Shown piece by piece: positions 11,964 through 31,970 of a stretch of 64,000 bases of DNA. Below the pieces are notes generated by a model. The model ran no database searches, was not told where the DNA came from, and saw nothing but the letters and a program-made list of their open reading frames with translations. The position numbers were made by a program, and so were the translations under genes. Positions within the stretch are counted from its first letter, which is position 1. Each line of letters starts with the position of its first letter. The stretch is from a virus. Lineage: Duplodnaviria > Caudoviricetes. The stretch lies in IMG/VR virus record IMGVR_UViG_3300037067_018912, positions 293,276-357,275 of that record; one strand, 5' to 3'.

Positions 11964-12194
11964 GACTGTTTGTTTTTGTGTGATTGATTTTATATAAGAG
12001 TTTACGGTAAAAACAGTAAAAGGTTACGTAAATGATTATCAATTTTTGCCTATGTGACGAATGGCTTAAAACCTTTGACGAACGGCCAGGTCCTGGAGAC
12101 CAATAGCCAGGTCTTGGCGTTTATCCCAGATCTGGTGCTGTTCGTCACCGGAAATCGTACATTGGTCAAAGTTACAAAATTTAATGCTTATTAG

Positions 12195-12220
12195 TCGAAC
12201 TTTATTTGTATTTTTACGTA
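12195..12220 (+). promoter_or_regulatory. variant ECF promoter upstream of the sigma gene (autoregulation)
   Basis: TCGAAC-N16-CGTA followed by ACATATTACG. Confidence 0.65.
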
Positions 12221-12289
12221 ACATATTACGGAAACAGTTTAAAACAAATTATTAAAGGTCTAAATTGAATAACTTTAAACGTGTGCAAA

Positions 12290-12973
12290 ATGAAAACAGC
12301 AAACAGTAAAACAGCAAAAAACAGATACAACAAATCACGTGTTATGCGTATGGCATGGGTTGTATACCGCAAAAATGGTGGTGACTTATTATGGTCAGAC
12401 AGCCTGAAACAGGCGTGGAATATGGAAAAGAACGGTTTGGCCGTTAATACCATTGAAAACCTTTATACAAGGTATTATAAAATGATTTTCAACCATATCA
12501 TTTTAAGGGTGCGCAAATATGAGATAGCACAGGAATTGACACAGGATGTCTTAATCAAAGCCAATGAACACCTTGCAAATTATGACGTTATGCGCTCCAA
12601 AGTATCAACATGGCTTTTGACTATTGCCAATAACAAAATAATTGATTTTTACCGGAGCAATGCCAATGCAAGTAATAAGGTCAATATTGGCGATTTTGTG
12701 AACGAAAAAGGTAATGAAACCCTGCCCATCATTGGCGGTTCACAGGCTAATGAAATGACTGAAAACGAAGAGTTAAAGGAAAAGATAATGTCCTGTATTG
12801 ACAAATTAAAACCTAATTACAAACAGGTTGCTATATTGCGCTTTGTCGAAGACAAGGAATACAGCGAAATAGCCGAGGCAATGTCCATAACCATTGACAA
12901 TGTGAAAGTTATGGTAAACCGTGTCCGTGCAATGTTACAAGAGCAATTGCAGGACGAATATTCCAACCTCTAA
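12290..12973 (+). CDS. ECF (group IV sigma-70) RNA polymerase sigma factor with N-terminal extension
   Basis: Region 2: AQELTQDVLIK...STWLLTIANNKIIDFYR; region 4: LKPNYKQVAILRFVEDKEYSEIAEAM...VKVMVNRVR. Confidence 0.92.
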   Translation: MKTANSKTAKNRYNKSRVMRMAWVVYRKNGGDLLWSDSLKQAWNMEKNGLAVNTIENLYTRYYKMIFNHIILRVRKYEIAQELTQDVLIKANEHLANYDVMRSKVSTWLLTIANNKIIDFYRSNANASNKVNIGDFVNEKGNETLPIIGGSQANEMTENEELKEKIMSCIDKLKPNYKQVAILRFVEDKEYSEIAEAMSITIDNVKVMVNRVRAMLQEQLQDEYSNL

Positions 12974-30525: not shown

Positions 30526-30619
30526 ACCATCCCTTTTCCTTAGAATATCGTAACAAAATAAATTTTTATACGTAAAACATTACATCGACAAACAATATCA
30601 CAAACGAAAATTTACTGAA

Positions 30620-31849
30620 ATGACAAACATCAATTGCATTAAAAGAGGTAACTCAATCAGCATCAGTATCAACGGTAATCTTTTGAAAAAGGATTTCCCT
30701 GATGCAAAGCAGGCTGATGATTATTTCCGTCTTGCCCTTAAAGCGAAGGATAATCCCACTGAGGAAAATATCAATTCGCTCAAATCATATCTGAACGAAA
30801 AACTTCGTATTGCACTGATGGTCGGCCTGGATTCATTCGTAGCCGATCCTGATTCAGGAGAAGTTTTCCTGGCAGGCTTTAACACTCCCGTGCCTGATAC
30901 ACTCGTGGAAGTCATAAAGGAATACCATGAGAAAGGATTTCCCCTTAAACCCATCGTCAACTTTTGGAAGTTGCTGATGTGTAATCCTGACACAAGGGTG
31001 CGCAAGTCTCTCTTCCGGTTCATAACCAAACACGATTTCGTGCTGACCGATTCCGGTTACATGATCGTCTATAAGGCCGTGTACCGCAAGAACGAAGAGA
31101 AAGTTCGCAAATCCGATCTGTTCAAAGAATTCGTTACCAACCAATACCTGCACGTGTGCAACGATTGGAAATGTTCCCCAAGGAAATACGTGGTGTTCAA
31201 GAACCTTGAAAAGGATTCCAAAGAACCTTATGGTATCACCAAGACTGTGACAGCCAAGAATTGGAACGAGCGCAAGATGAAAATCGAATTCCTCGGCAAC
31301 CTTGGTGACCTGTTCAATGCTATCGTGAAGAGCGACAAAAAAGGACAGAGGAAAGTACAGTATACTGATATGCACTCCCGCACCATGACCATTGAACTTG
31401 GTGTGCCTGCAACAAAGAAAAGAAATCTCTGCGATGCCAACCCCGATATTGATTGTTCGAATGGTCTGCACTGCGGTGCGACAGCATACGTGGAATGGTA
31501 CTCAAATACAAACAGCATCATCCTTGTGTGCCTTGTGAACCCGATGAATGTGGTTGCAGTACCGGAACATGATGCCAGGAAAATGAGAGTTTGTGAATAC
31601 TTCCCGTTTGCTGTGGCTTCTTACGACAAGACTGATAAGAAGATCACCATCATCGAAGAGAAGTATTTCGAGGACGATTACAAGACCTACGAAACAAAGG
31701 AACTCAACAAACTCGTGGCCAATATCAAAGCGAACGAAAAACCTTTCGAGGTTGCACAGAATGCCGTTCAGGATGAAAGGCCGATGGACGAACTGATGAA
31801 GATTATTGAGAACCGCCTGGTGGACATCACCGACGGTGATAAGATATAG
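30620..31849 (+). CDS. rIIB: rIIB-like protein
   Basis: NFW..L..NP, G....YKAV, CS.GLH, VNP..VVAVP, KMRVCEY; terminator 31874-31906. Confidence 0.88.
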   Translation: MTNINCIKRGNSISISINGNLLKKDFPDAKQADDYFRLALKAKDNPTEENINSLKSYLNEKLRIALMVGLDSFVADPDSGEVFLAGFNTPVPDTLVEVIKEYHEKGFPLKPIVNFWKLLMCNPDTRVRKSLFRFITKHDFVLTDSGYMIVYKAVYRKNEEKVRKSDLFKEFVTNQYLHVCNDWKCSPRKYVVFKNLEKDSKEPYGITKTVTAKNWNERKMKIEFLGNLGDLFNAIVKSDKKGQRKVQYTDMHSRTMTIELGVPATKKRNLCDANPDIDCSNGLHCGATAYVEWYSNTNSIILVCLVNPMNVVAVPEHDARKMRVCEYFPFAVASYDKTDKKITIIEEKYFEDDYKTYETKELNKLVANIKANEKPFEVAQNAVQDERPMDELMKIIENRLVDITDGDKI

Positions 31850-31970
31850 TTTTCAATTTGTGTCTTGCTGCCAACCCCTGCGTTTTCCATTGACGTAGGG
31901 GTTTTTAATTTCATTGTCATTTTGTAACAATAGCGCAATGTACACGTAATATCATTAAAGCAATGTCCAA

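Follow-up and report, generated by a model that had tools for sequence, protein, structure and literature searches.

A phage-encoded ECF-type sigma factor at the head of an array of GTAAC-N16-CGTA promoter-like sites in an uncultured jumbo phage

The window, that is, the whole stretch of 64,000 nucleotides analysed here, forms the final 64 kb of a virus record that is complete (IMGVR_UViG_3300037067_018912; 357,275 bp, with direct terminal repeats). The complete genome of this phage is designated G000 in coordinates and comparisons. A megablast search against known phages gave no match. The open reading frame (ORF) 12290-12973, here named sigA, encodes a sigma factor of the extracytoplasmic function (ECF) type and stands at the head of a 20-kb block (12003-31948) in which a two-box motif, YGTAAC-N16-CGTA, recurs in front of genes. 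The original prediction read this block as the regulon of a phage sigma factor. The sigma genes of the phage and the immediate neighbours of sigA are as follows.

11391-11963, - strand: gene for a protein of 190 amino acids (aa), divergent from sigA; adjoins sigA in the related phages G001, G013, L003 and L006
12290-12973, + strand: sigA, ECF-type sigma factor of 227 aa with a ~55-aa N-terminal helical-hairpin extension (Pfam, TIGR02937)
13057-13377, + strand: 106-aa ORF co-transcribed with sigA; present in the closest relatives L003 and L004 alone
G000 13556-14257, - strand: sigC, behind a host-type TTG...TAnnTTTG-like promoter
G000 73388-73966, - strand: sigB, overlapping the end of a primase-like gene (primase operon)

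Pfam-based annotation of the sigA product revealed the domains Sigma70_r2 (E 1.6e-13) and Sigma70_r4_2 (E 2e-11; 45.6 bits). In the 230-aa frame that begins with a GTG at 12281, these occupy residues 61-128 and 167-219, respectively, with nothing else in Pfam being matched. The protein passes the sigma70-ECF model TIGR02937 with 93 bits (cut-off 42.9), so that its earlier assignment to the ECF sigma factors is borne out; sigma-2 and sigma-4 are present and regions 1.1 and 3 absent, as in group 4. It stays below the cut-off of every equivalog or subfamily model, including SigM_subfam (84 of 148 bits), SigX (72 of 260), and SigW (64 of 209 and 57 of 243). The sole strong relative of solved structure is SigW of Bacillus subtilis (5wuq, profile E 3.8e-20), and a (N/H)R-x-R pattern in the sigma-4 helix is common to sigA, SigW, and sigma-E. 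The nearest cellular homologues are about 30% identical and belong nearly all to Bacteroidota. An AlphaFold2 (AF2) model (pLDDT 70) displays two helical domains with a disordered linker between them. The N-terminal extension, a predicted helical hairpin, is shared with G001-type orthologues and is absent from the others.

The window contains 33 exact matches to YGTAAC-N16-CGTA, compared to 0.12 expected from 100 dinucleotide shuffles of the same sequence, none of which reached 33. The whole genome of 357,275 bp holds 45 copies, 33 of them within the window. The number of 24 copies reported initially for the block was reproduced on the + strand, with coordinates that hold; one further copy lies on the - strand (12003-12028). 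All six copies that had been placed outside the block (266+, 38885-, 43779-, 46538-, 55518-, and 56830-) were recovered as well, but 58431- and 10171+ were missing from that list. The spacer is invariant, as had been claimed: in a scan of GTAAC-Nx-CGTA over the window, x = 16 gave 33 matches and any other x between 12 and 21 gave 0-1. Tolerance of one mismatch added only four sites, which is the number expected by chance, and the boxes are almost never degenerate. The genome-wide motif search recommended at the outset was performed as an unbiased count of all 5-mer/spacer/4-mer pairs. It ranked GTAAC-N16-CGTA first (45 observed, 1.3 expected) and revealed no second ECF-like pair.

The individual sites are listed below, the word promoter standing for a predicted promoter and distances being those to the downstream ATG.

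266-291, + strand: promoter before tRNA genes (Rfam tRNA 565-632 and 1081-1161)
10171-10196, + strand: exact match inside the 1294-aa ORF 6988-10872; in-frame ATG 10 nt downstream (10207)
12003-12028, - strand: CGTAAC-N16-CGTA promoter of the divergent gene 11391-11963, by motif match
12195-12220, + strand: TCGAAC-N16-CGTA, a sub-consensus form, as promoter of sigA; ATG at 69 nt
13407-13432, + strand: promoter of the DUF2958 gene 13464-13805; ATG at 31 nt
13808-13833, + strand: promoter followed ~40 nt later by the terminator 13876-13905; candidate small RNA
13919-13944, + strand: promoter; ATG at 29 nt
14252-14277, + strand: promoter, CGTAAC form; ATG at 29 nt
14845-14870, + strand: promoter fused to the upstream terminator hairpin; ATG at 28 nt; gene kept in L002, L006, L009 and L237
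16096-16121, + strand: promoter; ATG at 29 nt
16739-16764, + strand: promoter-like site without the conserved leader; possibly intragenic
17083-17108, + strand: promoter; the loop of terminator 17073-17098 contains its -35 box
17761-17786, + strand: promoter; -35 box within the loop of a terminator; ATG at 29 nt
18544-18569, + strand: promoter; ATG at 30 nt
19077-19102, + strand: promoter directly 3' of a terminator; ATG at 29 nt
19997-20022, + strand: promoter; -35 box within the loop of a terminator (-21 kcal/mol)
21067-21092, + strand: promoter; the loop of terminator 21060-21081 contains its -35 box
22036-22061, + strand: promoter of a ~70-nt RNA-like element, copy 1
22175-22200, + strand: promoter of the GP88-family gene 22236-23036
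23076-23101, + strand: promoter of the C5 DNA methyltransferase gene 23132-23998, in a terminator hairpin
24245-24270, + strand: promoter; ATG at 30 nt
25069-25094, + strand: promoter; -35 box within the loop of a terminator
25561-25586, + strand: promoter; the loop of a GC hairpin contains its -35 box
27305-27330, + strand: promoter before a tRNA-like or transfer-messenger RNA (tmRNA)-like sequence
27957-27982, + strand: promoter of the ~70-nt RNA-like element, copy 2
28162-28187, + strand: promoter of the rIIA homologue 28234-30525
30549-30574, + strand: promoter of the rIIB homologue 30620-31849
31923-31948, + strand: promoter before ORF 31971-32258
38860-38885, - strand: promoter before a tRNA-like sequence
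43754-43779, - strand: promoter; ATG at 25 nt
46513-46538, - strand: promoter; ATG at 33 nt
55493-55518, - strand: promoter; ATG at 25 nt
56805-56830, - strand: promoter of rtcB (55596-56780)
58406-58431, - strand: promoter before a 66-aa ORF; ATG at 22 nt

All 24 sites on the + strand between 12 and 32 kb are co-oriented with the genes, and the same holds for the sites elsewhere. AAC at -35, CGT at -10, a fixed spacer within the 16-17 bp range, and a position upstream of genes in the same orientation are the marks of ECF-type promoters, and the architecture first proposed for these sites was upheld on each of these points. Judging from motif and placement, they are very probably promoters of the ECF class. 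The match at 10171+ could be an internal promoter yielding a separate 221-aa C-terminal product, or a lone chance match.

The same boxes occur in cellular Bacteroidota, probably the phylum of the host. The comparison was made with two entries of Table S2 in the study of Flavobacterium psychrophilum by Guerin et al. (2021; PMC9723704). One of these is the SM6 'SigECF' promoter, tGTAAC-N16-CGTATAACCAATA, at a mapped transcription start site (TSS), and the other is an rpoD-proximal promoter, tgtAAC-N17-CGTATAACC, located 31 nt before rpoD. As the layout of that table reads, the TSS is 9-10 nt after the A of CGTA (PMC9723704). The agreement of the boxes with these mapped start sites indicates that the class is functional as a promoter in the phylum and is not private to the phage. 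In three Flavobacterium genomes, GTAAC-N17-CGTATAA was found 35 nt upstream of the gene for a 287-aa protein beginning with MRQLKITKQ, which is taken to be the primary sigma factor. No enrichment of the exact motif was detected in six Bacteroidota genomes, which suggests that the host regulon is small.

Within the block, the repeated unit is considerably longer than first described and extends past CGTA as CGTAATATCTTACATAATCAATACACAAACACA-ATG, an A/C-rich leader without a Shine-Dalgarno sequence. Leaders of this kind are expected for Bacteroidota. The distance from CGTA to ATG is 28-35 nt at 16 sites in the block and 46 and 45 nt at rIIA and rIIB, respectively. Copies outside the array keep the boxes and lack the leader; the corresponding distance is 22-33 nt. 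With a start offset of 9-10 nt after CGTA, the predicted +1 falls in TTACATAA and the 5' untranslated region would be about 20 nt long. The -10 box of in-block sites, for example at 17783-17806, lies within a palindrome, TTACGTAA, and the near-palindrome TTACATAA follows 4 bp further, over the predicted start. Both palindromes were considered as a conserved element and rejected, being specific to this phage; its relatives retain just CGTA(T/A)A. In this phage they may serve as an operator to which a repressor specific to the phage binds, or they may have arisen by chance from the T-run and the leader.

A search for terminators over the -35 region and the spacer (hairpin of -5 kcal/mol or below, followed by a T-run of at least 4) was passed by 10 sites of the window, all in the block. 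Seven of the ten have hairpins that are strong and GC-rich (-10.7 to -21.3 kcal/mol); here the -35 hexamer is located in the loop or the stem, and the T-run takes up the spacer's 3' half. One cassette thus ends in a terminator that is physically joined to the promoter of its successor. The same layout was identified in L001, L002, L237, and L024.

The genes served by these sites include the rIIA and rIIB homologues (PHROG 612, E 1.6e-64, and PHROG 609, E 2.4e-29, respectively), each with one ECF-type promoter, as well as genes for a C5 cytosine methyltransferase, a GP88-family protein, a DUF2958 protein, a GNAT-like protein, and RtcB, and the tRNA units. The presence of rtcB behind the promoter at 56830-, as noticed before, was confirmed by the RtcB gene on the - strand. 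About 30 small ORFs without family assignment are also located behind these promoters. The rIIA/rIIB pair points to a T4-like ancestry of the gene set. The equivalent genes in T4 are pre-replicative, and by this analogy the regulon looks like a pre-replicative set.

Five sites, those at 266, 27305, 38885, 22036, and 27957, head non-coding units. The elements behind 22036 and 27957 have no Rfam family. They are conserved RNA-like sequences of about 70 nt, TAGGcnGGGTaAAACTnGGGTGCAGTAATCC...AGTTTAGAAT..TTCTAAATAA, that stand directly behind ECF-type promoters in two copies per phage (22062-22145 and 27983-28066 in the window; ~14753-14830 in L001; ~16777-16860 and ~19115-19200 in L002). The copies differ by a compensatory change, GCGGG/CCCGC versus GTGGG/CCCAC. 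Another unit, 13808-13912, is predicted to give an ORF-less transcript of ~65-70 nt ended by a strong intrinsic terminator; a small RNA is suggested here because this terminator follows the promoter after only some 40 nt. ARAGORN found no tRNA in the window, whereas Rfam detected the two listed above, and these genes may be unusual, e.g. interrupted or permuted.

Two further promoter classes were recognized in the genome. The motif GTATTTAT, a putative late motif, is present in 102 copies compared to 32 expected genome-wide. It has no -35 partner, is sparse where the ECF class is dense, and is a candidate promoter class of sigB or sigC. The host-type motif TTG-N17-21-TAnnTTTG (72 copies, 32 expected) is spread elsewhere in the genome. 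The distributions of the three classes along the genome are complementary. The phage encodes a sigma factor, and its ECF-type promoters form a class separate from that of the host primary sigma. Two other explanations of the block were tried and discarded: sigma-70-type promoters are unenriched (62 versus 54), and the -33/-7 type of the host primary sigma (TTG...TAnnTTTG) misfits the spacing and leaves the invariant AAC and CGTA unexplained.

Relatives of this phage were identified by an alignment-based scan of viral contigs, while a single-protein scan gave none; they are referred to by G and L numbers, and those in IMG/VR derive from the metagenomes 3300044712, 3300035208, and 3300014494. 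An orthologue of sigA is located directly upstream of the array in G000, G001, G002/L005, G004, G013, G024, G029, and L006; in L009, too, an orthologue immediately precedes an array of this motif. Every complete genome of the clade that possesses the array has sigA at its head. Behind the sigA orthologue, L001/G001 contains 45 sites and L002/G002 contains 58, with none in reversed-pattern controls. Motif density in loci with sigA orthologues is 7-21 per 10 kb, in comparison to 0.15 around 156 distant ECF genes (1.45 Mb). A number of the cassettes contain genes with orthologues in the other phages, where they occur in a different order. Four separately built lineage consensuses share just tTGTAAC, the 16-bp distance, and CGTA(T/A)A, while spacers and leaders diverge.

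Variation of the boxes is accompanied by variation of the sigma factor. In G013 and L024 the -35 box of the array is GCAAT or GTAAT (N16-CGTA) in place of GTAAC, and the sigA-like helices of these two read SVLSMIARGK and SVGVYVSRAK versus TVKxxxNRxR elsewhere, so that L or G replaces the otherwise conserved K206 and K replaces R213. G033 combines a CGTT -10 box with a sigA-like protein of just 27-32% identity. The link of sigA to the array and the co-variation of the -35 box with the sigma-4 helix are thus supported by comparative genomics. In other uncultured phages, distant ECF sigma factors were also found with motifs of their own: L054, a metagenome contig of 634,660 bp, has six local copies of GTAAGG-N15-CGTCT, and L024 has four copies of GTAAT-N16-CGTATA within 3.4 kb. 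Sigma-plus-array modules with differing specificities therefore seem to be widespread.

The promoter of sigA itself deviates from the consensus in all seven lineages examined. The TCGAAC variant noted earlier before the sigma gene is indeed present in this phage; CCAAAC takes its place in L004, GGTA or AGTA replaces the -10 box in G001 and G002, and G004, L006, G013, and G033 have an altered box or 17-bp spacing. An ECF-type promoter does lie upstream of sigA, as the general expectation that ECF sigma factors autoregulate would have it, but its sub-consensus form in every lineage agrees with this at best weakly. We infer that this promoter is weak, amplified by feedback, and dependent on an outside spark. 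The 165-bp spacer between it and the divergent promoter (12029-12194) is GC-richer than the flanks and displays the inverted repeats GACGAACGG...CTGTTCGTC as well as CCAGGTCCTGG and CCAGGTCTTGG; this stretch may have a part in the regulation of sigA.

The absence of an anti-sigma gene next to sigA, stated in the original prediction, agrees with our survey; such an adjacent gene is common among ECF factors, though some of them lack it. No zf-HC2 domain was detected in the whole genome. The 106-aa ORF was considered for this role and rejected, having no Pfam domain and no conservation beyond the closest relatives. The product of the divergent gene 11391-11963 gave no match in Pfam, PHROG, or Atlas and a low-scoring AF2 model (pLDDT 56). 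Its adjacency to sigA in four related phages suggests that it may be a partner of the sigma factor.

Since the genome encodes three ECF-like sigma factors, the earlier statement that the phage runs its programme through 'its own ECF sigma' is ambiguous. The part of it that stands is the position of sigA at the head of the array and the co-variation of the -35 box; what does not carry over is the exclusivity, as there are three sigma factors and a promoter class shared with the host. One alternative is that sigB or sigC reads the motif and sigA is merely the first gene of the regulon, serving a later class such as GTATTTAT. The host-type promoter of sigC suggests that its product is probably made early, sigA itself is preceded by an ECF-type promoter, though a weakened one, and the abundant GTATTTAT motif requires a reader. 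However, sigC is absent from the complete genome G001, by both Pfam and protein searches, and yet this genome has its 45 sites. The sigma-4 helices of sigB and sigC have no (N/H)R-x-R pattern, and both proteins match r4_2 weakly and over part of its length (27-30 bits versus 45.6 for sigA). The sigB helix, TSSTVSNRVNYIKTKLKK, is nearly invariant over six lineages, including G013, where the -35 box is altered. Having no -35 partner, GTATTTAT better fits a sigma factor with a weak region 4 than it fits sigA. Reading of the array by sigB or sigC is, in our view, quite unlikely.

The main reader could also be a host ECF sigma factor serving the SM6-type class of Bacteroidota, a possibility already named in the original prediction. 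The phage would then exploit a stress regulon of the host, sigA being redundant, a booster, or directed to other targets. The mapped F. psychrophilum start sites, including the rpoD-proximal one (PMC9723704; the two entries compared), and the motif before the presumed primary sigma gene of Flavobacterium speak for it, as does the need of the sigA promoter for another reader at the start. This explanation is at odds with the occurrence of sigA at the head of the array in all complete array-bearing genomes, with the -35 variants that track the sigA helix, and with the lack of enrichment of the exact motif in the six Bacteroidota genomes. Host ECF sigma factors are, moreover, usually held by anti-sigma factors, and entrusting 45 essential-looking promoters to one of them would be risky for a phage. 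We consider a host main reader unlikely. Much less credit can be given to the idea of a repeat that serves chiefly for recombination or shuffling, as a cassette boundary comparable to the promoter early stem-loop (PeSL) of T4-type phages, and resembles promoters only incidentally. The long conserved unit of hairpin, two boxes, and ~30-nt leader, and the reordering in relatives of the small ORFs that it separates, would suit such an element. Nevertheless, across lineages just the boxes and the 16-bp spacing are conserved, copies outside the array keep the boxes without the leader, and the same boxes are found at the host promoters mapped in the entries compared (PMC9723704). PeSLs are themselves functional promoters, so the two roles are compatible, and recombination as the main function appears very improbable.

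Several observations weigh against sigA as the main reader. The co-variation rests on two AAT-type lineages, which are possibly related, and L009 has the R213K replacement without a change in the box. Because sigB is present in every relative examined, the phyletic pattern does not separate it from sigA. With this promoter class also present in the host, the sites could be read by a host ECF sigma factor, and the sub-consensus promoter of sigA may need some other reader for the first sigA to be made. No SM6-type autoregulatory promoter was found upstream of the nearest cellular ECF homologues; with this and an identity of only about 30%, the specificity of sigA is not transferable from a characterised relative. 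Taking both sides together, sigA is probably the main reader of this promoter class, with a probability of roughly 0.6.

From motif statistics, gene-relative position, sigma family, conserved linkage, co-variation, and the host class we infer how the sites may fire, with sigA rather than another sigma factor as their reader, and what timing and start-up route would follow. SigA would displace the host sigma factor on the host core RNA polymerase and direct it to about 45 promoters, 33 of them in the window. These would drive the pre-replicative, accessory part of the genome: the 20-kb array of one- and two-gene cassettes, rIIA/rIIB, the C5 methylase, GP88, DUF2958, RtcB, the tRNA units, and small RNAs. 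Many cassettes would be insulated by the upstream terminator hairpin that carries the next -35 box and by the T-run that fills the spacer. The programme would start with a little transcription by a host ECF sigma factor or with leaky transcription and would then be amplified by sigA, which is free of an anti-sigma factor; such a start is the most likely one because the class is read in the host and the promoter of sigA is weakened. A more specific version is that the phage copies an envelope-stress or starvation ECF class of the host, one that also drives the host primary sigma gene. The stress response of the host would fire the first transcripts, including that of the deliberately weakened sigA promoter, and anti-sigma-free sigA would lock on by positive feedback. 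This version is conceivable but rather doubtful; if true, it would represent a stress-triggered, self-amplifying switch built from terminator-embedded promoters.

The proposed use of a phage sigma factor on the host polymerase is a strategy also followed by SPO1, with gp28 and gp33/34. It is shared with gp36 of phiEco32, which likewise has no RNA polymerase of its own; there a small sigma factor with sigma-2- and sigma-4-like domains retargets the host core to a class of phage promoters (PMC12276001). That protein is a distant sigma homologue that recognizes promoters consisting mainly of AATGTA near -11 and needs the co-factor gp79 (PMC12276001). In contrast, sigA is a canonical ECF factor with a two-box AAC/CGT promoter and no co-factor or anti-sigma factor identified. 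Its targets look pre-replicative and not late, whereas gp36 serves middle and late promoters, and the sigA system is known from sequence alone. Phage sigma factors have been reported in surveys of jumbo phages that lack a polymerase (PMC7824862), and a survey of cultured phages listed just two Bacteroidetes phages with a sigma factor (bioRxiv 10.1101/2021.11.12.468384).

SigW and sigA share the -10 tetramer and have near-identical -35 boxes, but sigA is not an orthologue (57-64 bits versus cut-offs of 209-243) and has no RsiW-type anti-sigma factor. The spacer of SigW promoters is 16 bp. In B. subtilis, a CGTA -10 box gives selective recognition by SigW, and the -35 box of this type is TGAAAC (PMC5758882). 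The T-tract of the phage promoters lies beside the -10 box, being a terminator tail, and not beside the -35 box as in the SigW type. The SM6 class of F. psychrophilum has the same boxes but is small and degenerate, while in the phage there are 45 near-perfect copies together with a sigma factor of its own. The array also resembles the PeSL cassettes of T4-type phages, where the small variable ORFs of a plastic region are bordered by short terminator-promoter modules and rIIA/rIIB are likewise present (PMC2839356, PMC4122927). At 10 sites of our phage a stem-loop terminator is joined to a promoter between small variable ORFs in this manner. The PeSL promoter is a host sigma-70 early promoter beside the stem-loop, whereas the one described here is of ECF type with its -35 box within the hairpin.

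No new principle is involved, as phage-encoded sigma factors are textbook knowledge and the promoter class exists in hosts. For an uncultured clade of Bacteroidota jumbo phages, the analysis gives a transcription map that can be read, with three promoter classes and three phage sigma factors, in which the class of 45 sites can be assigned to one sigma factor with fair confidence. As the boxes are nearly invariant, the spacing is rigid, and natural -35 variants occur together with helix changes, the system may also provide orthogonal sigma/promoter pairs for the genetics of Bacteroidota.

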